DNA from: Candidatus Uhrbacteria bacterium
GTDB lineage: Bacteria; Patescibacteriota; Patescibacteriia; UBA9934
NCBI GenBank assembly: GCA_018673485.1
Contig: JABHCP010000005.1
Coordinates: forward strand, 64,102-128,101
DNA length: 64,000 bases
Reading direction: 5' to 3'
The notes beneath the pieces are model-generated. The model was not told where the DNA came from. It saw only the letters and a list, made by a program, of their open reading frames with translations, and did not search any database. A program made the position numbers and the translations under genes. Every line of letters starts with the position of its first letter. The first letter of the stretch is position 1. This document shows positions 1 to 56,518 of this stretch, one piece after another.

Positions 1-138
1 GTGGCGCTTGAGAAAAAAGTCGAAGAAGTTGTCCATGTGATCCTCTGGTCTGTTGACCGGGGTGAAAGTCCACCAAAACCTAGAATCGAGTTCTAAACTT
101 TGGCGGACCCTGCGAGGTTCCATTGGTTCTCGCAGGAG

Positions 139-540
139 TTAGGGGTGACGGCGAGGATGGCCACGACCACCTCTACGCTGGTTGCCCATGTAGTAGTGGT
201 TGTGGACGGTCTGCCGACCATTTTGGCGGTTGCGACGTCGCGCCGGCTGACCAGTGGCCAGGCGGTACACGAATGGCACTCCATACCAGAGGGCGAGGAT
301 GGGGAGGGAGATGGGCAGCGAAGCTGCGATGGCGTTGACCATCACGGTGCGACGCACCAGAGTGCTGATAGCACCACCACTGACACCAAAGACCGAGAGG
401 CCAATGGCAATCAAGTAAATGGGTGAACACATCAGCACCGTCCAGATGGCCCAGCTTCCCCAAGCTGCGAAGGCCAGCGCCACGATCTCCATGAGGAGTT
501 GTGGAACCGATCCGACGAGCTGTCCAAGTTGAGCGATCAT
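139..540 (-). CDS. small polytopic membrane protein, 133 aa, in a high-GC island; C-terminal Arg/Gly/His-rich tail
   Basis: Long ORF in a 60+% GC segment; three or more hydrophobic helices; aaggagaatacgATG Shine-Dalgarno; conserved 40-nt upstream element shared with the 809..1018 gene. Confidence 0.5.
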   Translation of the reverse strand: MIAQLGQLVGSVPQLLMEIVALAFAAWGSWAIWTVLMCSPIYLIAIGLSVFGVSGGAISTLVRRTVMVNAIAASLPISLPILALWYGVPFVYRLATGQPARRRNRQNGRQTVHNHYYMGNQRRGGRGHPRRHP

Positions 541-647
541 CGTATTCTCCTTGTGAAAGATGTTGGCCCATCAGTACTCACAATCTAGTTATGCGTATTG
601 ATAGGCCGCGGGGATATTGTCTCCCCGCTAGTTGAAGTGCAACCTCT

Positions 648-812
648 CTAGAGGTTTGAGGGCGGTCCCTTGCTACCGTGACCGGTGGCGCCGTGCCAGC
701 ATTCGCCGGCAATGTCGCTCAAGGGGAGGTTTCCGCTGAGCCACCACAGGATCAGGATCCCTGCAGTAAGGGTGACCTCACCCAGTGTGCGCAGCTTTTT
801 CTTCAGATTCAT
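648..812 (-). CDS. small hydrophobic peptide (54 aa, MNLKKKLRTLGEV...), start overlaps the stop of the upstream gene (ATGA)
   Basis: ggaggcgaaATG Shine-Dalgarno; single TM helix; translationally coupled to 809..1018. The ORF track extends it to 920, but the internal ATG with the Shine-Dalgarno is preferred. Confidence 0.4.
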   Translation of the reverse strand: MNLKKKLRTLGEVTLTAGILILWWLSGNLPLSDIAGECWHGATGHGSKGPPSNL

Positions 813-1018
813 TTCGCCTCCGGGCGATAGTTGTCGAAGCTGCTGGAAGTCCCCAGCAGTGCCTCTATGAAGAGAACAAATGGCCACAGGCCAGTGCAGA
901 TCAGGAAGATCTGAAAGCACTCGTGCTTGAGCCTTTTCCCCAGGATGGGGTTGATCGAGATCAGTCCTACGAGTAGGCCAATCGCGATCGAAAACTGGTC
1001 GCTAATGAATTTGATCAA
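809..1018 (-). CDS. small membrane peptide, 69 aa, TTG start
   Basis: aaaggagacatcTTG Shine-Dalgarno; two hydrophobic helices; conserved upstream element. Confidence 0.5.
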   Translation of the reverse strand: MIKFISDQFSIAIGLLVGLISINPILGKRLKHECFQIFLICTGLWPFVLFIEALLGTSSSFDNYRPEAK

Positions 1019-1107
1019 GATGTCTCCTTTGAACCATCGATACTCACAAGCTAGTTATGCGTATTGATGGGCCGCCGGTCTAGTGAAGACCGGCGAGGGG
1101 AGGGGTG

Positions 1108-1371
1108 TTAGAACTTGTGATAGATCAGCAAGCCCCAGCGAAACCAGACGCCCATGATGAATAGGGCAATGCTCGAGAGCACCGTGGTGCTGTTGAGCGG
1201 GTCGGGTTGCACGTTCATCGCTGAGGCGATGAACGTGTCGTACGCGATGGCGCCAACGGCGCCTAGGAGGGCACCGGCGATGCCGGCGAGCATGAAGGTG
1301 AAGAAGAGCATCACCAACTTCCTGTCAGTCGAATCGGTCGCGACTTCCATGGGGGGTGTGGTGTTGTCCAT
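1108..1371 (-). CDS. small membrane protein, 87 aa
   Basis: High-GC ORF; two TM helices; TTGACT-17-TATGCT promoter upstream (minus strand) at about 1400-1440. Confidence 0.5.
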   Translation of the reverse strand: MDNTTPPMEVATDSTDRKLVMLFFTFMLAGIAGALLGAVGAIAYDTFIASAMNVQPDPLNSTTVLSSIALFIMGVWFRWGLLIYHKF

Positions 1372-1473
1372 TTCAGCTCCAGCTTCAGCATCAGCGGCCC
1401 TTCATCACGATAGACTTCGCAATAGGACTGCTAAGACTAGCATAGAATTAAGCTCTTGTCAAGTCAAGGAGCC

Positions 1474-1499: not shown

Positions 1500-1511
1500 A
1501 TATCAAGTCAC

Positions 1512-1550
1512 GGCAACCCCCTCCTGCTCCCCCTTGGGAAGGGGGAGGGT
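1512..1550. repeat. GC-rich hairpin element GGCAACCCCCTCCTGCTCCCCCTTGGGAAGGGGGAG, copy 1 of 3
   Basis: Near-identical copies at 51964..52002 and inverted at 35819..35851. Stem CTCCCCC/GGGGGAG with loop TTGGGAA. Confidence 0.7.
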
Positions 1551-4373: not shown

Positions 4374-4520
4374 ATTCCTCCAATTTAAGTTGCTTTCATT
4401 ATATCAAACAATTGACATTTCGGTTAAAATGTTGTATGTTTATTCACTGTTAGTTTGTAAGTGATAGAGTTACAAGTGTTAAAGGTAGCCTTTTATTGTT
4501 AAAACTAAACGATAGAATGC

Positions 4521-4535
4521 CGCTTTTAACAAAAG
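4521..4535 (+). repeat. 15-nt direct repeat gcttttaacaaaaga, left flank of the high-GC cassette
   Basis: Identical 15-mer recurs at 5279..5293 on the other side of the 4604..5200 ORF. Confidence 0.6.
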
Positions 4536-4603
4536 ACAAAATGATAAACGAGGGTGTGCCTCGGAATCAGTGCGTCGGCGGTTCAACTGTAAAGGAGGTT
4601 GTC

Positions 4604-5200
4604 ATGGCGGGTAACTACCCTGTCACAGGCGACCAGTATCGCGACATCGATCGTCGCATGTCCGAGATCAAGCGCCAGCTCAACCAGGACGAAGGTAGTC
4701 CGTCGGATCCTGTAAGAATCCTTCTGGCACTGCAGGGCATCGTTGAAGGCAACTTCGACAACGTGCCCGTTGAGCGTCTGCCCATCATCGACTGCGACGC
4801 CATGCCCTTCATCCCTAACGGTTGGAGTGCAGTAGAGCACCGCAAGGGTGGTCAGATCGAGTTCGATCCGAGCAAGATCGTCCTTCACCTGGAGTCGGAG
4901 CAGCAGCGTAGCACGATCGTTGGCAATGAGCTTCGCAAGCGACTCGAGGGCCAGCCTGTGATGAACGCCAACGTTCTTGATCATCTGCTTGCTAACACCC
5001 GTCTCATCCCCGAGGACTGGAAGGCCGATGAGCAGGGGCGTATCCGCTGCATCTACTTCTGGGGCACCATCTACCGCGACTCCGGCGGCCGCCTGTACGT
5101 TCGTTACTTGTGCTGGAACGATGGTCAGTGGCGCTGGTACTGCAGCTGGCTCGACGATCCGTGGGACAGTCAGCGCCCGGCTGCCATTCTCGCGAGTTAG
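4604..5200 (+). CDS. hypothetical protein (198 aa) in a high-GC cassette; Trp/Cys-rich C-terminus
   Basis: aaaggaggttgtcATG Shine-Dalgarno; GC content far above neighbours; no recognised motif. Confidence 0.55.
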   Translation: MAGNYPVTGDQYRDIDRRMSEIKRQLNQDEGSPSDPVRILLALQGIVEGNFDNVPVERLPIIDCDAMPFIPNGWSAVEHRKGGQIEFDPSKIVLHLESEQQRSTIVGNELRKRLEGQPVMNANVLDHLLANTRLIPEDWKADEQGRIRCIYFWGTIYRDSGGRLYVRYLCWNDGQWRWYCSWLDDPWDSQRPAAILAS

Positions 5201-5249
5201 GCACTTAGGGCTTTGTGACTTGGTTCTTTGTTCTCTAGTTCGTACTTGA

Positions 5250-5325
5250 CCGGCGCAACGTTGTTGTGTCGGTCTCTGCTTTTAACAAAAGAAGCGCGTT
5301 TACGCTTCTTTATTTGTTGAGTGAT
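5250..5325. repeat. about 75-nt boundary module: GC-rich hairpin gaccggcgcaacgttgttgtgtcggtc followed by terminator hairpin aaagaagcgcg-ttta-cgcttcttt
   Basis: About 80% identical copy at 7070..7145. Both lie between a high-GC plus-strand ORF and a low-GC minus-strand gene. Confidence 0.7.
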
Positions 5326-6084
5326 TTACTTCAGTGGTTTGGACATTTTCCACAAGAAATCAAAATATTGTTTGTGGTACTTGGCGATTTCTTTACTACG
5401 AATCGTTGTGCCGATTGGTTGGCTTGTCCAAAGTACAAAGTCCACCTTATCATCGCGTATTTGCATACCCGCAACAGAGGCAAAGTCTGCTGGAAGGATA
5501 CGGACTTTTGTAAAAGGCATATCCTTAATTTGTTCTGCTCGTTTCATTGATCCTTTTGGAAAGATAAAACGTGCTGGTATCTCACGTTGTATGCGTCGCC
5601 TGTGAAAGTCTGCAAGTACAGTTGGAATAAATTCTTTGATGGTTTGTGCATCTTCTGCAAATCCTCCAATAACGTAAAATGTTCCTTTGGTACTAAGCGC
5701 ATCCTCAAATAATGTTTTTAAACCACGCTTGCCCTTGTAGTGAAATACCTCCTGATCTTCTTTGGAGAGCTTTCGCTTTGCCTCGAGCGCAGGGATTATC
5801 TTATTCAATTCTTTTTCTTGAGCCTCAAGCTCTTCTTGTTTTCTTTCAATTACTTTTTTGAGTCGCTTTGGAGTTACCGCTTCAAAGTATTTAGTGTTCG
5901 ACATGATTACATTTGAGACAAGCCCCTTTTTCGCTAGGGAACCAAGACAATCATAAACCTGACCTCGAGAGAGGTTGGTTTTGGAGATAATGTCCTTAGT
6001 CGTCACAGACCCAAGCTCAAGGAGGTTGAGATAGATCGTCGCCTCATTGCCTGTTAGCCCGATTTTCTTTAGAAGTTCTTTCAT
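5326..6084 (-). CDS. TrmB-family transcriptional regulator (N-terminal wHTH)
   Basis: N-terminus GLTGNEATIYLNLLELGSVTTKDIISKTNLSRGQVYDCL matches the TrmB HTH; low GC, native. Confidence 0.7.
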   Translation of the reverse strand: MKELLKKIGLTGNEATIYLNLLELGSVTTKDIISKTNLSRGQVYDCLGSLAKKGLVSNVIMSNTKYFEAVTPKRLKKVIERKQEELEAQEKELNKIIPALEAKRKLSKEDQEVFHYKGKRGLKTLFEDALSTKGTFYVIGGFAEDAQTIKEFIPTVLADFHRRRIQREIPARFIFPKGSMKRAEQIKDMPFTKVRILPADFASVAGMQIRDDKVDFVLWTSQPIGTTIRSKEIAKYHKQYFDFLWKMSKPLK

Positions 6085-6196
6085 ATATTGATTGTCATAC
6101 TACTCCAAGACGACAAGTTTGTCAATGATTCAAGGCTTTGATATCTTTCCAGGCTCGTCCCTTAACAACCGAGCAAAGAAGATGGGAGAGGAAAGC

Positions 6197-6865
6197 ATGT
6201 GTACTAAAAATCAAAATCCTTTCGAGCAGACGGTTGAGGAGCAGCTCGCTGCGCTTCGTCGTCAGAACAAACTTGGTAGTTGGGGCATAGAGGAGAGCGT
6301 ATTTGCACGTCTTGCCAAGACCGCTCCCGAGTGGCCAGAAGGGCGTGATGCTTATAGGAGTTTTCGTATTCGTTTTGGTGAGGGACGTGATGGTGTCATC
6401 AAGACCTTCGAGGCGCATGTCAATGCAGTTAAACATACTCATGACAATTTCTGGCGTTGGAATGGTTTGCTCTCTGGAGAGCATCCGTTCCTTGGAAAGC
6501 AAATAGACCGTCTGCGATTGCTGGCCGGCAATGGCAGTCATGCACCCATGATAGAGTGGATCATTATTCCCGACCTGTCGGCCAACCTGGGACATGGTTC
6601 AATCAACTCCGTACGTGGGGTAAAGTCTCTTGCAGATGCAGGACTTGTAGTGATTTGGCTTGTACCTGACCGGGTGCGTGCGATTGATTATAAAGAGTGG
6701 TGTGCATGGTTCCTTGCTGGCTATGAGGTGAATGAACCCAGAGATTATGTCCAATGGTGGACAAGTGTACCGTGCGTTCAATATAGCCCCCACACGGGGA
6801 CGGGTTTGCAAACTTGGTTGCGTTGCTATCCCAATCCAGGTTTTGCGGCGCCATCAGGCATATAG
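6197..6865 (+). CDS. hypothetical protein in a high-GC cassette, Trp-rich; possibly continued by frame 0 to 7016 through a frameshift
   Basis: ggagaggaaagcATG Shine-Dalgarno. The high-GC coding signal continues in another frame (6732..7016) up to the boundary module. Confidence 0.5.
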   Translation: MCTKNQNPFEQTVEEQLAALRRQNKLGSWGIEESVFARLAKTAPEWPEGRDAYRSFRIRFGEGRDGVIKTFEAHVNAVKHTHDNFWRWNGLLSGEHPFLGKQIDRLRLLAGNGSHAPMIEWIIIPDLSANLGHGSINSVRGVKSLADAGLVVIWLVPDRVRAIDYKEWCAWFLAGYEVNEPRDYVQWWTSVPCVQYSPHTGTGLQTWLRCYPNPGFAAPSGI

Positions 6866-7069
6866 TCTTTGGGGTCGCAACGTCCTTGAAGATCGCGATG
6901 AGTCGTGGAAGCACGTGGTGATCGTCAGCCGTGATCTGCGTGGTTACATGACAAGTCTAACAGCCCGCTTACGTAGTAATGTTTGTCCGTATTACCAAGT
7001 ACCCTCGTTTGAGTAGTATTGTCCGCGAGTGATATAATTGATAATACTTAAAACTTACCCGCTTTCTCA

Positions 7070-7145
7070 GACTGGCGTGACGTTGTTGCGTCGGTTTTTG
7101 TTTATATCAAAAGAAGCGCTTTCGCGCTTCTTTATTTGTTGAGTG
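7070..7145. repeat. about 75-nt boundary module, copy 2; also serves as the ftsH terminator
   Basis: See 5250..5325. Confidence 0.7.
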
Positions 7146-7147
7146 GG

Positions 7148-9043
7148 TTACTCCTTTGACTCTGTAGCTTTTGGTCCCATGAGCTCTTCGAATCTTTCTT
7201 TCTCGATAGTTTCTTTCTCCAGTAGTTCTGCAACTGTATTTTCTATCTTGTCTTGGTTTTCTTTAATCACCTTGTTTGCAGTTTCGAGTGCTTCGCTTAC
7301 TAGTCGTAGGATCTCTTCATCGATTAGTTGAGCGGTATTCTCGGAATAGTTGCGTCTGTCTTTGATTTCCTTTCCAAGGAACACTAGGTCTTCTCGTTCT
7401 CCGTATGTTCGTGGTCCCATTTTTTCACTCATTCCGTATTGAGTGATGAGGTTTTGTGCGAGTTTTGTTGCACGTTGCAAATCATTTGATGCACCAGTAG
7501 TAATGTCACCAAAAGTTGATTTCTCAACTGCGTACCCGGCAAGCATCATAGCGAGCTCATCGATAAATTCTGCACGGAAGTGCATCTTGCGGTCCTCACT
7601 TGGCAAACTCATTGTGTAACCAGCAGCTCGCCCGCGTGAGATTATTGATATCTTGTGCACGTCATCACAGTGCGGAAGCATGTGGCCAACAATCGCGTGT
7701 CCTGCCTCATGGTACGCAGTAATTTTCTTTTCTTTTTTAGAAAGGATGCTGCTCTTGCGCTCAGGTCCGAGCATAACTTTTTCAATAGCGTCCAAAATGT
7801 TCTTTTGTGCAATAATTTTTTTGTTGTGGCGTGCTGCGAGAATCGCACCTTCGTTCATGATGTTCATCAGGTCCGCTCCAGAGAATCCAACAGTACGTTC
7901 GGCAACGCGTTGAAGATCAACGCTTTCCTCGAGCGGTTTGCCTTTGGCATGAATTTCAAGAATCGCTTTTCTGTCTTTAAGTCCTGGGAAGTCAAGAGTG
8001 ATTCTTCGATCAAATCGTCCAGGTCTCAAAAGCGCTGGATCAAGTACGTCTGGTCGGTTGGTTGCGGCGATTACGATAATTCCGTTGTTTGGAGAGAACC
8101 CATCCATTTCTACCAAAATCTGGTTTAGTGTTTGCTCACGTTCATCATTTCCACCACCAAGCCCGGCGCCACGCTGACGTCCAACTGCATCAATCTCATC
8201 AATGAATACTATGCACGGTGATGCTTTCTTTGCTTTTGTAAATAAGTCACGCACACGTGATGCTCCAACTCCAACAAACATTTCTACAAACTCGGATCCG
8301 GAAATGTGGAAGAAGGGAACATTGGCTTCTCCTGCCACAGCTCTTGCGAGCAGTGTTTTACCAGTTCCTGGAGGACCCATCAGCAAAACTCCTTTTGGAA
8401 TTTTTGCTCCTACCTCTGCATACTTTTTTGGATGCTTTAGAAAGTCGACAACCTCAGTTAGTTCTTCTTTTGATTCTGCTTCTCCGGCCACGTCCTTAAA
8501 TGAAACACGATCTTTTTTACTAGTTACTTCTTTTGCTTTTGACTGACCAAATGTCATGGCCTTGTTGTTCGCTCCTTGCATTTGATTGATCAGGAACCAG
8601 AAGATTACCAAGAAACCAATTAGGAAAATCAGTGTTGGCAAAATTGATCGCAATAGTGAGATCCACATACTTGGCTCGACAACCTGAATGTTTACCGCTG
8701 AGAGTTCCTCACTAGTGATTCCGTAATTGGTAAGTAAATCAGAAAGTGATTCACCAGACTCTTTTTTTACTTCAAACTCAGTTTCATCAAGCGCGAAGAT
8801 CTTTAGTGTATTTTCCTCGATTTCAATGCGGTCGATTTCTTGATTGGTAATTTTCTCAACAAGAGTACTTGTACCGATTACTTCCGGTTCATCGCCGTTA
8901 AGGTTATATGATGAAAAAATGACTCCCAATGCTAATACGACAAGGAAGAAAATGATTAAGTTTTTTGATAGTGGCTTCATAGGTATTATAGTTATAGCGT
9001 CCTTTAGCGCCTGCATGATGCCAAAAAACAGGGGTTTTGGCAA
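7148..9043 (-). CDS. ftsH: ATP-dependent zinc metalloprotease FtsH
   Basis: N-terminal TM helices; AAA Walker [27 protein letters not shown] region; HEAGHAIVG zinc motif. Confidence 0.95.
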
Positions 9044-9120
9044 CCTTGATTAAAATGCACTTAATAAAGCAAGAGACACCCGGGGTGGGGTGTCGAGACG
9101 TGGGGCCGTTTGGTGGCTGG

Positions 9121-9396
9121 CTAGGTTGCCAGGTAGAGTTTGGCCCTATTTGCGTTGAGCTTGAAGCCACGGGAGAGAACGCCAAATACCTTGATGAGAA
9201 TCGCCGAGACGAGCAGGGTGCTTACCATGAAGCCGACAGTCGTGATTACCAGCGCTGGGTCGGCTTGTTGGATGACCATTGGGCTCATCAGTCCGATGAG
9301 GGCGAGTACGCCAATGACAACGCTTGTGCTGGTCGCGTAGACCGCGATGCTCACAAAGAGGCATAGGCCATCGATAATTTGGTTTGTGCGGTTCAA
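9121..9396 (-). CDS. small membrane protein (91 aa), TTG start, high-GC island
   Basis: aaaggagcgcaccTTG Shine-Dalgarno; two or three TM helices. Confidence 0.45.
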   Translation of the reverse strand: MNRTNQIIDGLCLFVSIAVYATSTSVVIGVLALIGLMSPMVIQQADPALVITTVGFMVSTLLVSAILIKVFGVLSRGFKLNANRAKLYLAT

Positions 9397-9883
9397 GGTG
9401 CGCTCCTTTGCAAATGTGAGGTATAGGCTGAATCCTTATTCAAATCATACCTCACTTTTGCAGACCAGGAAACTTAGCAGGAATGGGAGATTATGTCAAC
9501 CGTCTACGATGTATCTCATCTTTTTCAGCATTAGCCCTATTGGGGGTATTTCATCCCCCAAACCCCCTGACATACTTTCTTTGTTGGCTCAAAGAAAGTA
9601 TGCAAAGCCATGGCGGAGCCAGGTCCGGCTCCGCCGGAAAAAAGCCTTTTCAGAGTGTCCCACGGCCGCAAAGAATGATGCGGCCTGCAGTCAATGTTTT
9701 TTGGGTGACCATGAATGGACTGATTGCCAGTTCGGTCGGCAGGCTCCTTCTCAGACGGGGTGATTTGACAATGAATGAACGGGGGGCTAACTACTGAAAC
9801 ATTGCCGGGGGACTTGGATTGAAGAAATAAAAAGCAAAAGAACCGCCTTGGGGCGGTTCTTTTTAAGGTCTTGGATTCTGCGA

Positions 9884-11278
9884 TTACTCAGCCTTCGCTT
9901 CTTCTGTTTTTTCTACTTCAGCTTCAGCTGGTGCTTCAGTCTTTGCATCGTCGGCAGGAGCCTCTACTTCTGCCTCGGCTGGAGTTTCAGTCGCTTCAGA
10001 TGTTTCGGAAACCTCTTCCTTAACCTCCGCAACCTCTTGAGATCCCTCCTCCTTCGCTAAAGCTACGGCGGACAGGTCGGCTTCGCTCGGGATGACGGCT
10101 TCTGGAATACTATTATCCGCTACCGTCACCTTTTCTTCCTTTACAACCTCTTCTGCCTTTACCGCCTTCTTCTCTTCCAGTGCTCTTAGAGAAAGTCCTA
10201 GTCTGTGTTCTTTTGGTTCGATTGATACAATCTTGAACTTTAGCACCTCACCTGACTTTGCAACCTTTGAAGGGTGGTCAACAGGGGATTCTGAAAGTTC
10301 TGAAATGTGAGCTAGTCCATGAATGTCTTTATCAAGCTCCACAAAAAGTCCAAATGGGTTGCTCTTAAGTACTGTTCCTTCAACAACATCACCAATCTTG
10401 TACTTTGTTTCAACATCAGCCCATGGGTCAGTCTTTAGCTTCTTCATTGAAAGGAAGATCTTGCTTCCATCTATTCCAATAATTTCAGCCTTTGCAGTTT
10501 CACCTGCTTTTAGAAGATCTCGTGGGTGATCAATTCTTTGCCATGCAATTTCCGAGATGTGAACCAATCCTTCGAGTGCGCCACTTGCGTCTGATCCTGA
10601 TGGAATGAACTTTACGAAAGCTCCAAAGTCGGCAAGTGCTGTGATTTCACCCTCAACAACGTCTCCAACGTTGATCTGTGAAATAACATTCTTTTGCTCT
10701 GACTCCCAAATTGTCTTTTCTGAAACAATTAGCTTTTCATCATCTATGTTCATGTCTAGAATCTGTACTCGCATTTTCTTACCAACAAAGCTTTTAAGCT
10801 TGTCGAGAATCTTTCCTTTATCACCACCGCTAACACGTGGGTAGTTTTCAGGAGCGAGTTGTGAAACAGGAAGGAATCCAGTGACGTGTCCAAGCTGAAC
10901 GATAAGTCCACCTTTGTTTGCGTCGAGAACTTTAACCTCAACTGGTTCGTTCTTTTGGAATTGTTCCTGCATGTCTTCCCATGCTTTCTTGTTACCAGCA
11001 AAACGGAATGAAAGTTCCATTTCTCCATTTTCATTTTCAAGGTCAACTACAGTTGCCTCTACTTTGTCTCCACGCTTTATGTTTCCGTAAGTTCCACCCT
11101 CGGTGAAAAGCTCACGACCTCGTACAACACCAGTAGTTAGTCCATTGATATCCAAGCGCACCTCACGTCCTTTAATAGATAAAACGGTGGCCTCAATCAG
11201 CGCACCGAGCTCGGGGACGTTGAGATACTGATCATTTTCCAATAAAGCGGAAAGCTGTGAATTCTGTGTATCTGTCAT
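9884..11278 (-). CDS. rpsA: 30S ribosomal protein S1 (four S1 domains) with an acidic Glu/Ala/Lys-rich C-terminal tail
   Basis: Repeated S1 OB-fold motifs (G.V.G.V..I..FGAFV, GLVHISE / GLAHISEL). Confidence 0.9.
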   Translation of the reverse strand: MTDTQNSQLSALLENDQYLNVPELGALIEATVLSIKGREVRLDINGLTTGVVRGRELFTEGGTYGNIKRGDKVEATVVDLENENGEMELSFRFAGNKKAWEDMQEQFQKNEPVEVKVLDANKGGLIVQLGHVTGFLPVSQLAPENYPRVSGGDKGKILDKLKSFVGKKMRVQILDMNIDDEKLIVSEKTIWESEQKNVISQINVGDVVEGEITALADFGAFVKFIPSGSDASGALEGLVHISEIAWQRIDHPRDLLKAGETAKAEIIGIDGSKIFLSMKKLKTDPWADVETKYKIGDVVEGTVLKSNPFGLFVELDKDIHGLAHISELSESPVDHPSKVAKSGEVLKFKIVSIEPKEHRLGLSLRALEEKKAVKAEEVVKEEKVTVADNSIPEAVIPSEADLSAVALAKEEGSQEVAEVKEEVSETSEATETPAEAEVEAPADDAKTEAPAEAEVEKTEEAKAE

Positions 11279-11387
11279 ATATTGTGCCTGGCGCCGACAA
11301 TATATAGATATTGCGGGCAGCAGGTATTAATAATTAGTTATTTGTTGAACGTCGGAAGTGTAGCGTTTTGGCCAAATATTGTCAATA

Positions 11388-11448
11388 TGCTAAGGTTCAA
11401 CCAATCCTGATGCGCACCTTTGCGCACATGAACATGGAGGTCAGGATG
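11388..11448 (+). promoter_or_regulatory. conserved leader of HAD paralog 1: hairpin ATCCTGA...ggaggTCAGGATg that pairs the start codon region
   Basis: About 90% identical to 12433..12494; the inverted repeat includes the start codon. Confidence 0.55.
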
Positions 11449-12351
11449 TCCTTTAAGATCGTGGGCGTAAAGTCGCTTGCAGAGCTCGAGGAGCTTTTGT
11501 GCACGAAGGGTGAGGACGAGCAGATTCTGGCTGTCAACCTTACCCTTACCAGTATCCAGAAGTTCTTCGCGGCTTTTGTGGCGGCGGTAGTGGCCGCATT
11601 TGACTTCGATGGCACTGTAACGGCGCATAGTCAGTTTACAGCTCTTCGTAACAACACGAAGACCATGACACGGGCCATGGCAGAGGAGGATGAGGCAGAT
11701 GCAATGTCGTACTTCGGTGGCGGCATTCTCTCTGACTACGGCCACATCTCGTTCATCTTCCGTACAGTTCGGCGCATGCTGTCTGCACGGTTGGATCGCA
11801 ATGACTTCAGGGAAGCAGTTACGGAGATCAAGCCGCGTCCTGGGGCTATTGAGCTGATGCAGACGTTTTTGCCACGGATGGCTGGAGCGATCGCTATCAT
11901 TTCTTACGGACTGTGGGACGTGATTCGTATCTGGACAGACTTCTACGCTTACCATGTTGTGCGTAGCGATGCGATCCACGCTCTCAAGCTTGATTGGAAG
12001 CGTGACATGCTTGATGGGTGTCAGCTCACCACTGTTGTCAGCGATGGCAACAAGGGCCATCGATTCGCTGTGCACTGCGCGCTCAATGAAGTGGAACCTA
12101 AGACAGCGATCGTGATCGGCGATTCACCCATTACCGATTTGTCCATGCTCCGTATGGGAATTGGTGTTCTGCTGATCCCCAATACCGAGAAGGTGTTGAG
12201 GAATATCAAGAAGCAGGAGGCGGAGATGCGCGCTGACCACCGTGTTGGCCCCTTCCTTGCACCTGCGTTCATGCATGTGCAGGCGTTTTTCCTCTCGGAC
12301 GATCTGACCCCGCTTGCGAAGATTCGTTTGGGTGAGATCACGTGTGACTGA
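11446..12351 (+). CDS. HAD-superfamily hydrolase-like protein, paralog 1 (high GC)
   Basis: Motif I FDFDGTVT, motif IV-like VIGDSPITD; ggaggtcaggATG Shine-Dalgarno. Confidence 0.6.
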   Translation: MSFKIVGVKSLAELEELLCTKGEDEQILAVNLTLTSIQKFFAAFVAAVVAAFDFDGTVTAHSQFTALRNNTKTMTRAMAEEDEADAMSYFGGGILSDYGHISFIFRTVRRMLSARLDRNDFREAVTEIKPRPGAIELMQTFLPRMAGAIAIISYGLWDVIRIWTDFYAYHVVRSDAIHALKLDWKRDMLDGCQLTTVVSDGNKGHRFAVHCALNEVEPKTAIVIGDSPITDLSMLRMGIGVLLIPNTEKVLRNIKKQEAEMRADHRVGPFLAPAFMHVQAFFLSDDLTPLAKIRLGEITCD

Positions 12352-12432
12352 TCCGATCAGTCAATTTCTACCCCGTGCTAGCCTCTCAGGCCGGCGCGGG
12401 TCTTTCGCTTTTTTTTGGGAAATGAAAAGGCT

Positions 12433-12494
12433 ATGCTAAGGTTCAACCAATCCTGATGCGCATTGTCGCGCACATGAACACGGAGGTCAGGATG
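12433..12494 (+). promoter_or_regulatory. conserved leader of HAD paralog 2 (same hairpin)
   Basis: See 11388..11448. Confidence 0.55.
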
Positions 12495-13412: not shown

Positions 13413-13623
13413 GATCCAAGCCCTGCTTGGATTAAATATCGTTTCCCGTGCTAGCCTCTCAGGCCGGCGCGGGATTGTTGCTTATAAAACAGTAGGCAGT
13501 AGGCAGTATGCAGCTGCGCCCTTCCGTAGCTTTAGCGAAGGAGGGTAGGCGGTTTTGGTAGCTTGCTTTATCGACTGTCTACCGTCTACTGCATACTGCA
13601 TACTTTTGATATACTATTCACGT

Positions 13624-19370: not shown

Positions 19371-19375
19371 AACAA

Positions 19376-41560: not shown

Positions 41561-41583
41561 TCAAAACCGGACCGGAGGAATTC

Positions 41584-43227: not shown

Positions 43228-43313
43228 CATTGACATTGGGCTAGGTGCGTGCTGAAATGGAATAAGAAACTCCCTAATGATTGTTTATAACGATCACTGG
43301 GGAGTTTTTATTT

Positions 43314-44771: not shown

Positions 44772-45595
44772 TGAGCATTGCGATTTTTACAGCGCTTTTG
44801 ATTTTTGTTGTTTCGATTCAAGCGTTTCGATATCAGTCATGGTGGAACGATAATGTTTCGATTTGGGTTTTCGATGTAGGGCAAGGGGATGCGATTTTTA
44901 TTGACGCCGATCAGAATATACTAATTGATGGCGGGCCCAGCGACGTGATAATTGAAAAGCTGTCGATGGTTTTGCCGTTTTGGGATCGTTCGATTGATTA
45001 TATCGTGAATACGCATCCGCACGCAGATCACCTTACGGGTCTGATTGATGTTTTGAATAGATATTTGATCGGCGAAGTATGGGTTAGCGGGCAGAATTAT
45101 GAAACAAGTTTTCATGATGCATTTAGCACTTCGAGTGAAGATCTGAGTTCTATTATTGTCGCCGGACATTCAGTTGAATTAAGCCATGATGTGGTAGCTA
45201 CAGTATTGTGGCCAATGTCGAGCCTCGATGGAGTCAGACTTGATGATCCCAACGATGGCTCCATAGTTATGTTGGTTGAATGTTTTGAAACTCGAATGTT
45301 ACTCACTGGTGATATTGGCACCAATCAAGAGCTTGCAATTATGGAGCGAGCGGGGGACATTAATATTTTGAAAGTCGGACATCAGGGAGGCTCAACATCT
45401 TCGCACATCGATTTTTTAAATACCATTGACCCCGAGGTTGCGATCATAGCGGTCGGAGAAAATGATTATGGTCACCCACATGCCGAGGTCATTGATCGAT
45501 TAAATCAAGTCGACGCTGAAATATATCGAACCGACTTGCACGGCGACGTTCGAATCATTTGTTCACCGGAGGGATATGAAATTAAATTATATTAA
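44747..45595 (+). CDS. ComEC C-terminal metallo-beta-lactamase domain encoded as a separate ORF
   Basis: VFDVGQGDAIFID ... HPHADHLTGL; overlaps the comEC stop by 25 nt. Confidence 0.8.
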   Translation: MVFKNKHVVSIAIFTALLIFVVSIQAFRYQSWWNDNVSIWVFDVGQGDAIFIDADQNILIDGGPSDVIIEKLSMVLPFWDRSIDYIVNTHPHADHLTGLIDVLNRYLIGEVWVSGQNYETSFHDAFSTSSEDLSSIIVAGHSVELSHDVVATVLWPMSSLDGVRLDDPNDGSIVMLVECFETRMLLTGDIGTNQELAIMERAGDINILKVGHQGGSTSSHIDFLNTIDPEVAIIAVGENDYGHPHAEVIDRLNQVDAEIYRTDLHGDVRIICSPEGYEIKLY

Positions 45596-45606: not shown

Positions 45607-46164
45607 ATGAAGTTTCATGAATTAGACGATCGTTTAATTAGTGAAGAAGCTAGGCCTCTTCGGCCACACTCTAGAACGTCAAAAATATTAGTCGATATAG
45701 GAAAGGCTATTGAGGATGCTCATTTTGGTTTATCTAGACCTGGATTGGTTGTCAGGTTTGGTTTAGAGGGTGCACGTGAATTTTTGAATAGAAAAGAAAT
45801 GAGACTAAGAAGGCAGGAATTAAAGAGGCTAGAGCAAAGAAAAATGATACAGAGGAAAAAAATAGAAGGTGAGTACTGGACTTCATTTTCTAAGTCAGGT
45901 TTTGAAGAGTATATAGCGCAGCTTTCGATAAATGCAGATAAGTTGCCGGTTGGTCAGCTTTGTTTAGTTTCATTTGATATTCCTGAAAATCAGAAACGTT
46001 TACGAAATAAAGTAAGGCGAATATTGAAAAGGTTGGGTTTTCGACAGATACATAGAAGCGTATGGTGTTGTTCAAGCAATGTTAGTAATTACGTGGCAAA
46101 ATTATTTTCTTCAAAATTTAAGGCAGATAATTGGTTTAAGATTTATCTGGCATCAGAGTTATAG
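45607..46164 (+). CDS. hypothetical protein with a Cas2/VapD-like C-terminal segment (LCLVSFDIPENQKRLRNKVRRILKRLGFRQIHRSVW); possibly PaaX-like
   Basis: Pattern resembles Cas2 LVxYDI...RR.KV.K.L...G.RVQ.SV.; no cas1 or CRISPR array nearby. Confidence 0.35.
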   Translation: MKFHELDDRLISEEARPLRPHSRTSKILVDIGKAIEDAHFGLSRPGLVVRFGLEGAREFLNRKEMRLRRQELKRLEQRKMIQRKKIEGEYWTSFSKSGFEEYIAQLSINADKLPVGQLCLVSFDIPENQKRLRNKVRRILKRLGFRQIHRSVWCCSSNVSNYVAKLFSSKFKADNWFKIYLASEL

Positions 46165-46201
46165 GTTTCACTAACTCGACGATCGTCGAGTTAGTGAAAC
46201 C
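46164..46201. repeat. 38-nt perfect palindrome ggtttcactaactCGACGATCGTCGagttagtgaaacc directly after the stop codon
   Basis: Related to 28389..28430. Confidence 0.7.
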
Positions 46202-46272
46202 TTGTGTGCTTGATTGTTTTGTGTATTATTGCTATATTTCGGGCGAAAATAATGTGAAATTAAATATATTTT

Positions 46273-49744: not shown

Positions 49745-50140
49745 AAAGTAATACCCACCGGACACGAGGTCCGGTGGGTGAAGTTTTGCGGTGCCTTTCG
49801 GCGCCGCGTGTACCATCTGGGCATGATCTCGATCAGGCCGATCCATTCAGACTTCCACATCACGACTTTGCTGTGTGGCTTTTTTTGTTTTGCCTACGGT
49901 TTATCCGATTCACAGTTATTACGCTCAGTTTCGGTCAACGCCTGCCTCTGACTTTAGCGGGCTGTCGAAGTTCGTGCTCAGTAAGGTGATACGGCTTTCT
50001 CGGGCGGGGTTGGGCTAGTTCCCAGTGCGGTCGCTTTCGCAATGCAACGCGTTCGCGCTGACGCCCCAAAGGGCGATTTCCATGTAGTTGCTCATGGCTC
50101 GATTAGTATAAATCGAAATGTATAAAGATTCAATAAAAGC

Positions 50141-50196
50141 AGAACGACCCCACAGCGCTTAGTAGCGGTGCGGGGTCGGAGTCGTAGAGATGTTCG
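50141..50196 (-). terminator. terminator module agcagaacgaccccac with hairpin ccccacagcgcttagtagcggtgcgggg
   Basis: Second copy of the module at 51404..51445, after the next minus-strand gene. Confidence 0.6.
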
Positions 50197-51342
50197 CTAG
50201 AACATCATGGCGTTGCCCGTGAGAGGGATGCCATCGATGAGGTCGCCGTAGAAGGTGTCGCTGCCAGCGGCGTAGTAGCTCCACTCCAGATCGGTGACGT
50301 TGAACTGGGTCGAATCATCGCTGGCAGCACTTGCTCCTGTGGAGTCGAAGTACAGCGAGTAAGTGTACGTAATGCCAGCATTGACGATCTCGCCGAGGTT
50401 TCCGATCACGGCGTAGTCCAGGATGTCACTAGGTGCCGAGGAGCACTCGGTGCCGTCGGCGGTGTGGAAGCTCCAGTCGAGGTCGGCGTCGAGCTCCAAG
50501 CTGGTGCCGTACATGTTCAGGTTGTAGACCGCAAACCAGGCGGGGTCGGCGAGCATGGCACAGGTGTTCCAGCCAGTACCGGCGTTGTCCGTGGAGTTGA
50601 ACTCGAAGGTGAAGCCATCGAGCGGGTCAATGTCGCCACCGGAGTCGGCGCTGAGGTTGAACCGCAGTACTTCTTGCATACCGGGGATGCTCGTGCCCGA
50701 GGGGCTGTAGGAACTCAGAGCGATCGTCGGCTCGGTGATGTGCCAAACCATCTCGGTACCCTCGACGTAGTCGGTCATGGCGCGGTGGTTGTAGCTGTTT
50801 CCGCTGTAGATGCCCGTGGCCACGGCTCCTGCGTCGGACCAGTTGAGCTGCATGGTCATGCCGGGTGTGGCGACGGTCTCGGCGGTGGCGACCACGTAGA
50901 CTGCCATGATCGCGCGGCTACGTGCACAGCGCGGGATGTACATGTCCTCGTTGATGAAGGTAGCGGTGCCTCCCGAGGAGAGCGCCGCACTTGACGTGAC
51001 CAGCGATCCGCTGGTGTCCCTGTATTCCACGGTCACCGCATAGACGGTCTGGTGATCACCGTCGTTCTCGAGCACGAAGTCCATGAGTCCCAGTCGCTCG
51101 CCACTCGAGCAGAATTGGAAGATGCTCACGACCTGTCTGTCACCTGCGAGGATGATGTTCTCGCTCATGGCCGGGTGGCCAGAGACGCGCATACGCGACC
51201 GACGTGGCGGCGGCGCTGCAGTCGGCGCGGACTTCTCGTTCGCGACTGACTCATCAGCGTAGTGGTTGAACATCGGCTCGATCGGGCTGCACGCGACAGC
51301 CAGGATCAGGACCAGGAAGGAGAGAAGGGTCAGGTGTCGCAT
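50197..51342 (-). CDS. secreted lipoprotein (lipobox LAVAC), Ser/Thr/Gly-rich, high-GC cassette
   Basis: Signal peptide MRHLTLLSFLVLILAVAC; no catalytic motif recognised. Confidence 0.55.
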   Translation of the reverse strand: MRHLTLLSFLVLILAVACSPIEPMFNHYADESVANEKSAPTAAPPPRRSRMRVSGHPAMSENIILAGDRQVVSIFQFCSSGERLGLMDFVLENDGDHQTVYAVTVEYRDTSGSLVTSSAALSSGGTATFINEDMYIPRCARSRAIMAVYVVATAETVATPGMTMQLNWSDAGAVATGIYSGNSYNHRAMTDYVEGTEMVWHITEPTIALSSYSPSGTSIPGMQEVLRFNLSADSGGDIDPLDGFTFEFNSTDNAGTGWNTCAMLADPAWFAVYNLNMYGTSLELDADLDWSFHTADGTECSSAPSDILDYAVIGNLGEIVNAGITYTYSLYFDSTGASAASDDSTQFNVTDLEWSYYAAGSDTFYGDLIDGIPLTGNAMMF

Positions 51343-51472
51343 GACGTTCCTTAGTCAAGCTCGGCATTGAGCGCGCTAAAAATAGCGCTTTTTTTGCTTT
51401 TTGTCAATGCTAGAAGCAGAACGACCCCACGCCGTGTGTGGCGGGAGGTCGAGGGGAGTGGTGATCGAGTTT

Positions 51473-51841
51473 CTAGCCCAGCGGCAACTGTTCGGGCGGG
51501 CCTTCGGATTCGTAGTCGTTGACGAAGTCATCCTGCGGCAGTGTGGGCGGGCCTTCACTCGGGATGCACTGTTCCATGAGCTTGGGGCGGTGTTTCTCGA
51601 ACGCTGTGATGACGAGCTTGATGTGGTTCGTGAAGTTCTGATCTGACATGTAGTTGGACATGAACCAGCCCCACATCTCATCGATAATCTCATCGGTGAT
51701 GTACCAAGATTCAACCATCATGGCGAAATCTTTGGCTGCATGCTCGCAGCTATATTTCTTTCCTTTATACTTGAGTTGAGCTTTGCGTCTGCTCAGGTAG
51801 ACATCGACGAGTAGTCTGATTAACCAGTTGATGAGTTTCAT
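51473..51841 (-). CDS. hypothetical protein; 5' half AT-rich, 3' half GC-rich
   Basis: ORF with a composition shift in the middle; weak. Confidence 0.35.
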   Translation of the reverse strand: MKLINWLIRLLVDVYLSRRKAQLKYKGKKYSCEHAAKDFAMMVESWYITDEIIDEMWGWFMSNYMSDQNFTNHIKLVITAFEKHRPKLMEQCIPSEGPPTLPQDDFVNDYESEGPPEQLPLG

Positions 51842-51963
51842 GTGTACCTCAGGGTTGGGGGGAAGAGCAGTTTTGCGAACAGAGCAATGTAGCCTAATTT
51901 TAGCATAAAGTCAAGGGAATGCTAGCGGTACTCGTAGGGTCGATAGGATAGCCGAAAAGTGCC

Positions 51964-52002
51964 GGCAACCCCCTCCAGCTCCCCCTTGGGAAGGGGGAGA
52001 GT
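51964..52002. repeat. GC-rich hairpin element, copy 3 (ggcaaccccctccagctcccccttgggaagggggag), upstream of rpsL
   Basis: See 1512..1550. Confidence 0.7.
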
Positions 52003-55225: not shown

Positions 55226-55230
55226 AAATA

Positions 55231-55263
55231 GTACGCAGTTCGCAGTGCTCAGTACACAGACAG
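55231..55263 (+). repeat. heptamer CAG repeats (gtacgcag-ttcgcag-tgctcag-tacacag-acag) after the fusA stop
   Basis: See 14302. Confidence 0.55.
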
Positions 55264-55429
55264 AATAAAAGAACTCGTCGAGTGATCGGCGGGTTTTTTG
55301 TATACGCACTTGTTATCCCCGACCCCGAGCGGGGATCCATCAGCTATCGATCTTGATCTTGGTTTTATTACGTGCTAATCTCACTTTCCGTTCCATGTGG
55401 TGCAAACCACGCAACTCAAGGAGGCTTTC

Positions 55430-55837
55430 ATGCCTATCGTCAAGGTTTATGGTGTTCCTAACAGCATCGATGAGAATGTGTTGGAGATATTTGTAGCAGG
55501 GGTCCGAAATGTTCTTCCGCTCGTGACTCAGCTTGGCATTACGAGCGAGAACGTTACTGTCTTTCTGGTCCCCGATATGCTTCAGAAGGGGCTTGGTGAG
55601 GAGGTTTGCGTCGAGGTGGTTGGTCTCTTCGACAAGCCTGAAAGGAGTGACGCGGTGCGTCAGCGAGTCGCGATTCATCTGGCTTATACCGTACACACTC
55701 ATCTTGCTTCTCATCTGCCACAGCTCGAGCTCATAGAGGTGCTTGTGCCCAAGTTTGATCAGGCCGAGAGCGGCTTTGGTCGCTGGCACAAGGCTGATGG
55801 CTTCTCCCGTGAAAAAGACGACGGTTTTCCGCGGTAA
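55430..55837 (+). CDS. tautomerase-superfamily-like protein (Met-Pro N-terminus), high-GC cassette inserted between fusA and tuf
   Basis: aaggaggctttcATG Shine-Dalgarno; MPIVKVYGVP resembles the 4-OT/MIF N-terminus with catalytic Pro1; tentative. Confidence 0.4.
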   Translation: MPIVKVYGVPNSIDENVLEIFVAGVRNVLPLVTQLGITSENVTVFLVPDMLQKGLGEEVCVEVVGLFDKPERSDAVRQRVAIHLAYTVHTHLASHLPQLELIEVLVPKFDQAESGFGRWHKADGFSREKDDGFPR

Positions 55838-56156
55838 GGATAGACCTAGTTCTAAAAGATCTTTCAGCGCTCCGCTCTCATGCGGGCGCTTTTGCTTCTA
55901 TGAAAATATTTTTCATTAAGGTCGCGATCGGCCCTTTAGTGAAAAATATTCATGCTTCAAATGTGTAACGATCGCGTCAAATGTGAAGCATGAAGAAAAA
56001 AAGTTTTCCACACTTTGTTTTTGATTTTTGAGTTAACTTTATACAATGAATAGTGCTGACTGGGTCAATGTAGTGGGAAAACCCTTGCTGGGGTTTATTG
56101 TCAAACAGGCCAACGTGGCAGTGGTAGGGTTCAACCCAGCGATCTAGGAGGTCGTT

Positions 56157-56405
56157 ATGACGAGAGCCAGACTCACTGCCCGTAATCGAGAAGTAACCTG
56201 TGGTGCTGGCGGCTTAGTACCACCGGGGGTTCGCATACCTCCACCAGTTCACTGTCCCGATCGACCCACGGTTCGGAATACAGGAGAACGAAGCAATCGC
56301 GAAAAGCCGAATGCCTGGGAGGAGATCTGGGGTGCACGTGACATGATCGCTCTCGCTGAGCTGTCTTCCGTGTTCGCTAGTGGTACACCTCCACCGATTG
56401 CCTGA
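56157..56405 (+). CDS. hypothetical Pro/Arg-rich protein, high GC
   Basis: ctaggaggtcgttATG Shine-Dalgarno. Confidence 0.35.
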   Translation: MTRARLTARNREVTCGAGGLVPPGVRIPPPVHCPDRPTVRNTGERSNREKPNAWEEIWGARDMIALAELSSVFASGTPPPIA

Positions 56406-56518
56406 CCTGGTTCTTGCGTCCTTCTTGGGAGATCCCTCGGAGGACGTTAGCTTATCCAAAAGTTTTTTCAGCTAGCGTGCTCTTGATTTTTTATCTAAGT
56501 GATATAATATTGGCTTAT

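Follow-up and report, generated by a model that had tools for sequence, protein, structure and literature searches.

How does a bacterium of the candidate phyla radiation (CPR, or Patescibacteria), with a genome of roughly 1 Mb, come to carry sharply bounded GC-rich genes among the housekeeping genes of a low-GC chromosome? The question is raised by a 64,000-nucleotide (nt) stretch of contig JABHCP010000005.1 (positions 64,102 to 128,101 of the forward strand), hereafter the window. It is chromosomal DNA of a marine Candidatus Uhrbacteria, the name borne by exact matches of its proteins, and record names such as 'HAWL17' and Ga0066609 may point to the Saanich Inlet water column. It encodes a PilB-type ATPase, FtsH, S1, GyrA, RNase III, NusB and RNase Y, together with TruB, IF-2, GDH, LeuRS, ComEC, NDK and the str/S10 ribosomal operons. 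The GC-rich islands between these genes are probably the contents of hotspots of horizontal gene transfer (HGT) that lack mobile elements and would be filled and re-filled by moron-like cassettes from a flexible gene pool, GC-rich and led by Shine-Dalgarno (SD) sites. A previous sequence-only reading of this DNA had proposed an uncharacterised mode of cassette acquisition; this proposal is not retained, the pattern fitting described HGT hotspots without mobile elements (PMC5635113) in a bacterium that encodes ComEC and PilB.

GC-rich stand-alone units between housekeeping genes

High-GC segments were called by two-state GC segmentation together with 300-nt profiles. The whole window has 44.9% GC, backbone segments range from 40 to 45% and the housekeeping backbone amounts to about 42% overall. 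Ten high-GC segments were obtained, one of which corresponds to two tRNA genes, and the cassette segments span 0.35-2.2 kb. The GC boundaries are sharp at the cassette edges and show no decay into the flanking core genes. The features are listed below with the called segment and its GC content in brackets; junctions are named after the bounding core genes, and promoters, SD sites and terminators are consensus-level readings (TTGACA boxes, SD sites, hairpin plus T-run).

1-1400, minus strand: PilB/Smr accessory module of small GC-rich membrane-protein genes, continuing past the left window edge (segment 1-1400, 56% GC)
139-540 (133 amino acids, aa), 648-812, 809-1018 and 1108-1371 (87 aa; GC content at third codon positions, GC3, 0.84), minus strand: genes of the PilB/Smr module, from database gene calls
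1505-1550, plus strand: repeat D11, a GC-rich hairpin with the core CCCCCTTGGGAAGGGGGA; further copies at 51957-52002 and, inverted, at 35818-35836
4412-5330, plus strand: single-gene cassette for a 198-aa protein, with promoter-like sequence 4412-4440, AAGGAGG SD site, gene 4604-5200 and module D4 at 5248-5330 (segment 4549-5211, 59% GC)
6092-7152, plus strand: weakly GC-elevated accessory segment with gene 6125-6865, then a second D4 copy at 7070-7152
9044-9883, no strand assigned: GC-rich S1/FtsH spacer with one possible open reading frame (ORF), 9055-9366, and, at 9391-9500, a conserved element of about 100 nt that includes a hairpin (segment 9069-9369, 58% GC)
11368-13552, plus strand: tandem genes of predicted HAD-IB-type phosphatases, 11446-12351 and 12492-13412, at the junction of a 248-aa gene and S1 (53% GC; segment 11406-13552, 53% GC)
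19371-20720, plus strand: GyrA/L32 insert with motif D8 at 19376-19391, terminator 19402-19427, palindromes 19450-19561 and promoter-like sequence 19692-19720 (segment 19807-20632, 57% GC)
23210-23453: two tRNA genes, found by Rfam at 23209-23363 (high-GC segment outside the islands)
35810-35956, no strand assigned: short GC spike without gene cassette, made of the inverted D11 hairpin 35818-35836 and the ribosome-binding region of GDH
37260-38440, minus strand: three tandem units at the GDH/LeuRS junction, each with TTGACA box, GGAG-type SD site, ORF and GC-rich hairpin plus T-run (segment 37280-38403, 57% GC)
41500-41960, plus strand: single unit after LeuRS, with TTGACA-N17-TATATT, GGAGG SD site, gene 41584-41892 and terminator 41925-41955 (segment 41567-41948, 59% GC)
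49750-51920, minus strand: three tandem units at the M50-peptidase/S12 junction, with genes 51473-51841 and 50197-51342 and the short unit 49753-50133 (segment 49754-51617, 59% GC)
55226-56460, plus strand: insert between fusA and tuf with motif D8 at 55230-55259, terminator, 135-aa ORFan, palindromes 55921-55993 and GC-rich stretch 56106-56446 (segment 56106-56446, 58% GC)

Most of the places named by the sequence-only reading coincide with these segments, but two of its 11 are not gene cassettes. The place 6180-7020 has only 49-51% GC and a gene that is backbone-like by tetranucleotides. The place 35810-35956 is no gene cassette but a short hairpin element resembling repetitive extragenic palindromes, the third copy of repeat D11. 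Two further places, 9050-9830 and 55290-56460, are composite, with one plausible ORF each and otherwise GC-rich DNA devoid of a coding signature. The GC content of 60-65% attributed to the segments holds for the peak 300-nt windows, which reach 60-63%, but the segment means are only 53-59%.

Most islands consist of stand-alone units with promoter, SD site, ORF and terminator, and thus show, at the level of sequence, the autonomous organization of phage morons. Indeed, the self-contained layout, the own terminators, the reused boundary modules and the composition foreign to the backbone described in the sequence-only reading are all seen. As that reading had also stated, integrases and transposases are lacking among the ORFs scanned, and no attC-like site is present; Pfam, PHROGs, NCBIfam and PADLOC scans, which covered the very small ORFs only in part, yielded no integrase, transposase or tyrosine recombinase. 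The repeat search found no direct repeats flanking the islands, and the only tRNA genes (23209-23363) adjoin none of them.

Island and backbone genes differ in both composition and translation signals. GC3 is 0.67±0.10 in islands vs 0.375±0.05 in the backbone, whose maximum is 0.48 (Mann-Whitney p=2e-8). By tetranucleotides, 15 of 16 island genes and all 20 backbone genes fall into the correct class, so that the compositional check suggested at the outset does separate the two; the exception is gene 6125-6865, with 49% GC. Furthermore, island codon usage correlates with that of sibling islands (r=0.83) and of high-GC Uhrbacteria (0.74-0.79), and not with that of its own backbone (-0.16).

If a match of 5 nt or more at the proper spacing is taken as an SD site, the strong SD sites noted earlier are confirmed: they precede 13 of 17 genes in the islands vs 6 of 34 in the backbone (Fisher p=1e-4), and shuffling of the island upstream regions leaves on average 1.0 SD and never more than 5. 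On the other hand, the upstream regions of the backbone are AT-rich, with no SD match at all for 25 of 34 genes and a match below 5 nt for 28 of 34. The frequent TTG starts reported for the cassettes were a product of mechanical ORF extension, and SD-anchored or database gene calls mostly give ATG.

Housekeeping genes without SD site include ribosomal-protein and elongation-factor genes (for example upstream of 16728, 38490, 53123 and 57068), and the backbones of the related genomes L092, L094 and L107 and of the 64% GC genome L086 likewise mostly lack SD sites, which suggests that translation initiation in these Uhrbacteria is mainly SD-independent. The homologue of the 198-aa gene in L086 keeps the AGGAGGTTGTC-ATG initiation region of the window copy in a backbone without SD sites, so that the gene carries its ribosome-binding site along.

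Turnover of content at conserved junctions

Using S1 homologues as anchors, we retrieved sibling loci from five genomes, with GyrA identities to the window of 92% (L105), 89% (L092), 89% (L108), 81% (L094/L095) and 75% (L107). The core order RNaseIII-NusB-L32-GyrA-...-S1-FtsH-329aa-PilB-...-Smr/TsaE/TsaD is kept in all of them, and the order IF2-Trx-(TrxB)-GDH-LeuRS is kept in L006, L007, L008 and L088. The content of the junctions is as follows.

GyrA/L32: window, 166-aa and 113-aa genes; L092, unrelated 160-aa gene (54% GC); L094, unrelated 193-aa gene (64% GC, GC3 0.84)
GyrA/L32, further siblings: L107, GGDEF gene (59% GC); L105, empty, 77-bp spacer
S1/FtsH: window, 841-bp GC-rich spacer; L094, 134 bp; L107, 188 bp; L092, two unrelated GC-rich ORFs
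FtsH/329aa: window, 257-aa gene, trmB and 198-aa gene; L094 and L107, empty; L092, a different trio
PilB/Smr: window, four genes for small membrane proteins; siblings, another content in each genome, L094 and L095 differing as well
GDH/LeuRS: window, three-unit island; L006, 7 bp; L007 and L008, island absent; L088, cassette with a diversity-generating retroelement (DGR)

The GyrA/L32 junction thus has five states, namely four different contents and one empty site. At the FtsH/329aa junction, which is empty in L094, the window holds the 198-aa cassette, trmB (5326-6084) and gene 6125-6865, which counts 246 aa at these coordinates and appears as the 257-aa gene in the junction comparison. The sibling comparison called for by the sequence-only reading therefore reveals empty sites or other cargo at the same junctions, the opposite of the same genes at the same loci with uniform composition. 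Conserved bounding core genes, variable or empty content and the lack of mobile-element genes in the scans are three of the features by which HGT hotspots without mobile elements are recognized, and the window has these three; the fourth feature of such hotspots is elevated homologous recombination in the flanking core genes.

The sibling cores have a GC3 of 0.3-0.4 in four genomes and of 0.55 in L107. Accessory genes have about 52-68% GC in genomes with backbones of 41%, 49% and 57% GC, and this similarity is better explained by a shared GC-rich pool than by a constant offset from each host. Variable hotspot genes are not all GC-rich: L108 has inserts of low GC, and a P-loop NTPase/helicase-like gene of only 36% GC, which lies in the window at 22457-23167 between the gene of RNase III and the two tRNA genes, is missing from L105.

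Relatives were also sought beyond the anchored loci. Exact-protein look-ups with EF-Tu, S12 and the 381-aa protein encoded at 50197-51342 returned the same strain only, or nothing. A LeuRS scan of species-representative genomes gave only distant relatives, with at most 63% identity, and a TrmB scan of metagenome contigs gave one relative, which is not syntenic. L006 (CAZVIA010000001.1, 36% GC) is labelled 'uncultured Gammaproteobacteria bacterium'; it shares with the window a CPR-type synteny comprising RNase Y, TruB, IF-2, GDH, a long LeuRS and a split ComEC, so that its organism label is probably wrong. It also carries an unrelated island of its own at 1-1255 (60% GC, GC3 0.83).

Resident families that stay GC-rich

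The genes at 11446-12351 and 12492-13412 are predicted to encode HAD-superfamily phosphatases: both have the DxDxT nucleophile and C-terminal GDxxxD motifs, and the D-x-D-x-T and GDSP-x-x-D columns are invariant in the alignment. The Pfam HAD score is 31.4 bits for HAD1 (cutoff 27) and 18.8 bits, below the cutoff, for HAD2, while NCBIfam gave only weak HAD-IB/SerB-like matches. The two proteins are only 32% identical to each other. HAD genes are found at the same junction (248aa/S1) in five genomes and form at least four allele classes, with 24-36% identity between classes where the flanking core genes are 80-92% identical; class B groups L108 with L094, contrary to the core tree. The 133-aa membrane gene at the PilB/Smr junction, also present in L094, L092 and L108, contradicts the core tree too, the window copy being 73% identical to that of L094 vs only 52-55% to those of the closer relatives L092 and L108. 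The HAD junction is a replacement-type locus, and the members of both families behave like replacement alleles.

Both families have a GC3 of 0.52-0.81 across the siblings. Already in the comparison of the window with its closest sibling, the synonymous sites of core genes are saturated, with a proportion of synonymous differences (pS) of 0.63-0.86. In the same comparison, the syntenic HAD1 pair has a pS of 0.68 and a GC3 of about 0.63 in both copies, the neighbours being at 0.36, and its nonsynonymous divergence (dN) is 2-6 times that of core genes. A rough amelioration estimate gives a GC3 of at most about 0.47, even for a donor at 0.9. High GC3 at saturated synonymous sites implies continual replacement from a GC-rich pool or a force that holds GC in place, either biased gene conversion or selection.

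The second option can be extended to all islands, whose genes would then be old, vertically inherited and very fast-evolving residents of their junctions. A local force would keep them GC-rich, be it gene conversion biased towards GC at recombination hotspots or selection that acts on the codon usage or mRNA of genes for envelope proteins. The syntenic HAD genes in five genomes and the 133-aa gene in four, the saturation and rapid protein divergence just described, and a GC excess that appears whatever the backbone GC (41%, 49% or 57%) are what this explanation has to offer. We nevertheless hold it to be unlikely: the same junctions may be empty or occupied by clearly unrelated genes, the HAD and 133-aa trees conflict with the core tree, the 198-aa family occurs at different loci and on phage contigs, the island genes differ in SD usage besides GC, and the GC boundaries at the cassette edges are sharp, with no decay into the flanking core genes.

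The 198-aa family, a diversity-generating retroelement and phages

The gene at 4604-5200 (59% GC, GC3 0.70) belongs to a family spread across Patescibacteria, with 140 matches, and its chromosomal context differs in each genome examined (three contexts). Its homologue in L086, a CPR genome of 64% GC, matches its surroundings in composition, and that in L088 (57% GC) is GC-elevated, with a GC3 of 0.93 vs 0.65. Members also occur on phage-like IMG/VR contigs, on which the start codons are ambiguous as regards SD usage. One of these contigs has 55% GC and carries genes for a RecT-type annealase, a replication initiator and a methyltransferase.

In L088, a family member is the target gene of a complete DGR that occupies 9194-11713 between GDH and LeuRS. 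Its variable repeat (VR, 9654-9786) and template repeat (TR, 10135-10267) form a 133-nt pair in which all 23 internal mismatches fall at TR adenines, and a reverse transcriptase gene (RVT_1, 10667-11713) follows. For the window copy, neither a second copy of the 3' end of the gene nor a reverse transcriptase was found within 64 kb (tblastn E>0.6). The model of the 198-aa protein (pLDDT 92) gives weak matches to C-type-lectin-like proteins, including TvpA, and the protein is, on the basis of homology, a putative orphan member of the C-type-lectin-like family of DGR variable proteins. Three states are conceivable for the window copy, namely an orphan, a relic and a target that is served in trans.

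The link to phages invites the idea that the cassettes are morons or prophage remnants, left behind when temperate prophages of Uhrbacteria decayed or were deleted. The moron-like architecture, with own promoter, SD site and terminator and a composition unlike the flanks, agrees with such an origin, as does the presence of the 198-aa family on phage-like contigs, one of them with 55% GC like the islands; DGRs are often carried by phages. However, neither the 64-kb window nor about 100 kb of sibling loci contains phage structural, integrase or repressor genes, PHROGs matched only a weak HAD, viral scans were negative for three other cassette proteins, and each of about nine junctions would need an integration followed by near-complete decay. 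This origin therefore also strikes us as improbable for the islands as a whole. As to the view of the cassettes as morons in the sequence-only reading, the architecture fits and one family resides on phage-like contigs, but no prophage surrounds them, and they are not morons in the strict sense because they do not lie inside a prophage.

A probable flexible gene pool and what weighs against it

We come back to HGT hotspots re-filled from a GC-rich pool as the explanation that we favour. The backbone is interrupted at about nine intergenic junctions by modules of one to four stand-alone units of 53-61% GC, each unit comprising a putative sigma-70-like promoter, an SD site, a short ORF with GC-rich third positions and a hairpin terminator. 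The source would be a GC-rich pool of SD-using genes in circulation among Uhrbacteria whose backbones differ widely in GC, and at least a part of it may reside on the phages of these bacteria. Relatives could pass on and replace cassettes without a dedicated recombinase; DNA would enter via the type IV pilus/ComEC system encoded in the window and be swapped through a double crossover located in the conserved core genes on either side, while the first entry of a cassette into a junction would be due to either illegitimate recombination or phages.

Several points weigh against this explanation. Core genes were compared by pairwise dN/dS alone, and homologous recombination does not account for how a GC-rich gene first arrived from a donor with very different DNA. 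Intergenic DNA is unalignable at this divergence and synonymous sites are saturated, so that insertion boundaries, including end-points and target duplications, cannot be mapped at the nucleotide level. The four right-hand islands were compared with distant relatives or none. Phage relatives are demonstrated for a single cassette family, that of the 198-aa protein, PHROGs, PADLOC and viral scans being negative for the others; for the 381-aa, 166-aa and 257-aa proteins, no relatives came up in scans of viral contigs, a method that needs shared 8-mers and is weak for single sequences. Of the search in phage and CPR databases that had been proposed, the phage part thus yielded relatives of one family. 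Furthermore, the HAD and 133-aa families are GC-rich in all siblings despite complete synonymous turnover, and a one-off acquisition followed by amelioration does not predict such lasting high GC3.

This last point leads to a more speculative idea, which we would rank as rather doubtful, namely that the cassettes are a separate, self-sustaining Uhrbacteria gene pool and not ordinary transferred genes on their way to amelioration. An unseen GC-rich replicon or phage lineage could re-seed gene-end hotspots by an integrase-independent or trans-acting mechanism, or biased gene conversion at hotspots of recombination could keep the cassettes GC-rich where they are. If either were true, a small genome would keep two compositional and translational 'dialects' over evolutionary time, one SD-led and GC-rich, the other SD-less and AT-rich.

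Two trivial explanations can be dismissed. A chimeric assembly or binning of one low-GC and one high-GC organism, conceivable for metagenome-derived sequence with abrupt composition changes, is excluded by the recurrence of this DNA, islands and island-backbone junctions included, at 99.9-100% identity in more than 10 contigs that differ in sample, project and assembler, by syntenic core genes on both sides of the islands and by sibling genomes with the same phenomenon and other cargo. An amino-acid effect of Ala/Gly/Leu-rich membrane or secreted proteins, of which the cargo has several, has virtually nothing left to explain, since GC1 and GC2 are only slightly raised in islands (0.57 and 0.42 vs 0.535 and 0.366), most of the shift lies at synonymous third positions and soluble cargo (the HAD proteins and the 198-aa protein) is shifted too.

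The population is clonal at these loci. Strain-level variation of the islands, considered as a cause of assembly breaks, was ruled out because every short contig matches the window at 100%.

Anatomy and cargo of the islands

The bias of the cargo reported in the sequence-only reading is broadly right, and two proteins are to be added, one that is C-type-lectin-like and belongs to a family of DGR targets and one that is an adhesin-like lipoprotein with beta-sandwich domains. The latter is the 381-aa protein of the M50-peptidase/S12 island (61% GC, GC3 0.82), with two beta-sandwich adhesin/cohesin-like domains; ten members of its family, including proteins of about 1,300 aa, have no Pfam match. 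In the same island, 51473-51841 encodes 122 aa and the short unit 49753-50133 measures about 340 nt. Of the three ORFs of the GDH/LeuRS island, 37960-38346 specifies a Cys-rich lipoprotein with an LVGC lipobox, 37582-37830 a membrane protein of 82 aa, and the last, near 37350-37450, a hydrophobic peptide of about 33 aa. The unit after LeuRS encodes a 102-aa membrane protein (GC3 0.68), and L006 has a different content at the same junction. The GyrA/L32 insert contains two ORFan genes at about 19781-20248 and 20252-20593, with 57% GC, and a terminator near 20612-20640. The remaining cargo consists of small membrane or hydrophobic proteins and ORFans. PHROGs, PADLOC and NCBIfam returned nothing for the cargo beyond weak HAD matches; taken together, it looks like cell-envelope and interaction proteins.

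While fusA and tuf are adjacent in most bacteria, the gap between them is 1.84 kb here (55226-57067) and holds a GC-rich ORFan cassette, a possible RNA and, at about 56520-56902, a low-GC gene of 127 aa that has no match beyond a faint one to PhdYeFM antitoxins. The ORFan gene (55430-55837) has an AAGGAGG SD site and its own terminator at 55871-55888. The 340 nt of 56106-56446 adjoin the antitoxin-like gene; their sole ORF has a GC3 below GC1 and GC2, which is not coding-like, and they fold more stably than shuffled sequences on the plus strand (z=-2.7; minus strand, z=-0.7) and end in a terminator-like hairpin. This stretch, for which Rfam gave no match, may be a structured RNA.

Structured RNA was rejected as an explanation of the islands in general: Rfam, at gathering thresholds and at E<=1, found only the two tRNAs in the window, and most islands are clearly coding. 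The possible RNA candidates are reduced to 56106-56446 and part of 9044-9883.

Boundary modules and short elements

The repeat search of the window uncovered only terminator modules shared in pairs (D4, D5/D15 and D11) and no motif common to all cassettes. D4 is an 83-nt double-hairpin terminator located 3' of both 4604-5200 and 6125-6865; homology between the 198-aa and 257-aa proteins that share it was considered and rejected (hhalign probability 0.1). A terminator module with the core GTGGGGTCGTTCTGCTT closes the first two units (122 aa and 381 aa) of 49750-51920, and the two HAD genes carry duplicated 5' (D5) and 3' (D15 and D19) modules.

D8 is a motif of about 30 nt made of heptad-like repeats (AGTACGC AGTTCAC AGTGCTC AGTATGC AG), with four copies, all on the plus strand, at 14302-14331, 19376-19391, 34667-34696 and 55230-55259. 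The copies start 0-7 nt after the stop codons of backbone genes, namely the 248-aa gene, GyrA, a thioredoxin-like gene and EF-G. In the three copies read in sequence, the motif lies upstream of the terminator of the host gene, and three copies mark the left edge of a variable segment. It is absent from all sibling loci and could be a 3' untranslated element, a protein-binding array or a recombination target.

Intergenic palindromes with a CGATCG core and GTTTCAC...GTGAAAC or TGAAAA arms, several of which adjoin islands, are present at 28389-28432, 46163-46202, 19450-19561, 32078-32106 and 55921-55993, with a related copy in L094/L095 (2858-2871), and could be operators or bidirectional terminators.

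The element of about 100 nt in the S1/FtsH spacer (window, 9391-9500; L092, 11848-11939; L108, 11449-11558) shows 74-80% nucleotide identity despite saturated synonymous sites, and its conservation is independent of reading frame. Three pairs in its hairpin, which measures about 45 nt, are compensatory, and the sequence TTGACA-N17-TAAGTT on the minus strand is invariant. Without Rfam match, and absent where the spacer is short (L094 and L107), it may be a small RNA or an ftsH leader.

Two core genes of the right half have unusual structures. LeuRS has 998 aa in the window (38490-41486) and 995 aa in L006 (9938-12925), as compared with 830-842 aa in the CPR relatives L007 and L008, and the extra region includes a weak NTP_transf_5-like match (residues 586-634). 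ComEC (43281-45595) consists of two ORFs that overlap by 25 nt, a Competence/DUF4131 part (43281-44771) and a metallo-beta-lactamase part (44747-45595); it is split likewise in L006, by either a natural split or a programmed frameshift.

Significance and comparison with known systems

CPR bacteria have tiny genomes and depend on other cells, and little is known of the ways in which they gain and exchange those genes for surface and interaction functions on which the choice of partner presumably depends. Dense single-gene hotspots among housekeeping genes, conserved across a family-level clade, make a competence-plus-recombination model of such acquisition testable. Furthermore, high GC3 and SD-led translation are two independent signatures of the gene pool and thus offer a sequence-based handle for extracting the flexible genome from metagenomes. 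Resident cassettes that remain GC-rich after synonymous saturation run contrary to the standard picture of amelioration.

The closest parallel is with the hotspots of Oliveira et al. 2017, many of which lack mobile elements, show recombination in the core genes beside them and are more frequent in species that can be transformed (PMC5635113). In both cases, accessory genes lie between syntenic core genes and their content turns over rapidly, and the window likewise lacks integrase and transposase and encodes DNA-uptake machinery. The scale is far smaller here, with single genes in 0.35-2.2 kb and about nine junctions in 64 kb, the accessory DNA is GC-richer than the core and the cassettes use another translation-initiation signal than the core. 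Such a polarity is the reverse of the usual direction, acquired genes being as a rule AT-richer than the core.

Morons were reportedly described by Juhala et al. 2000 and by Hendrix and colleagues as independent transcription units between prophage genes. The cassettes resemble them as stand-alone promoter-gene-terminator units of deviating base composition, present or absent between collinear relatives and often coding for membrane or surface proteins, but they are located between housekeeping genes (gyrA/rpmF, fusA/tuf, gdh/leuS and others), with no phage genes near them in the window or in sibling loci.

Replacement-type flexible genomic islands, said to have been described by Rodriguez-Valera and colleagues and by Coleman et al. 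2006, include O-antigen loci and the hypervariable regions of streamlined marine bacteria. The HAD junction resembles them in its divergent allelic classes, tree conflict and atypical composition, whereas the loci of the window comprise one or two genes, are GC-rich and not AT-rich, and have no adjoining tRNA genes. Classical genomic islands differ more, since tRNA adjacency, flanking direct repeats and integrase are all lacking here. Integron cassettes are likewise small, mostly single-gene units of unassigned function and heterogeneous composition, but the window has no IntI, attI, attC or array, and its units are dispersed with their own promoters and terminators. Finally, compared with other DGR variable proteins, the L088 homologue is alike in its VR/TR pair, adenine-specific mismatches and adjacent reverse transcriptase, whereas the 198-aa cassette of the window differs in having neither TR nor reverse transcriptase within 64 kb. 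No description of GC-rich islands in CPR bacteria or Uhrbacteria was found in the literature; what is new here is the occurrence of HGT hotspots and moron-like units in a CPR bacterium, the reversed GC polarity and the split in translation signals between cassettes and core.

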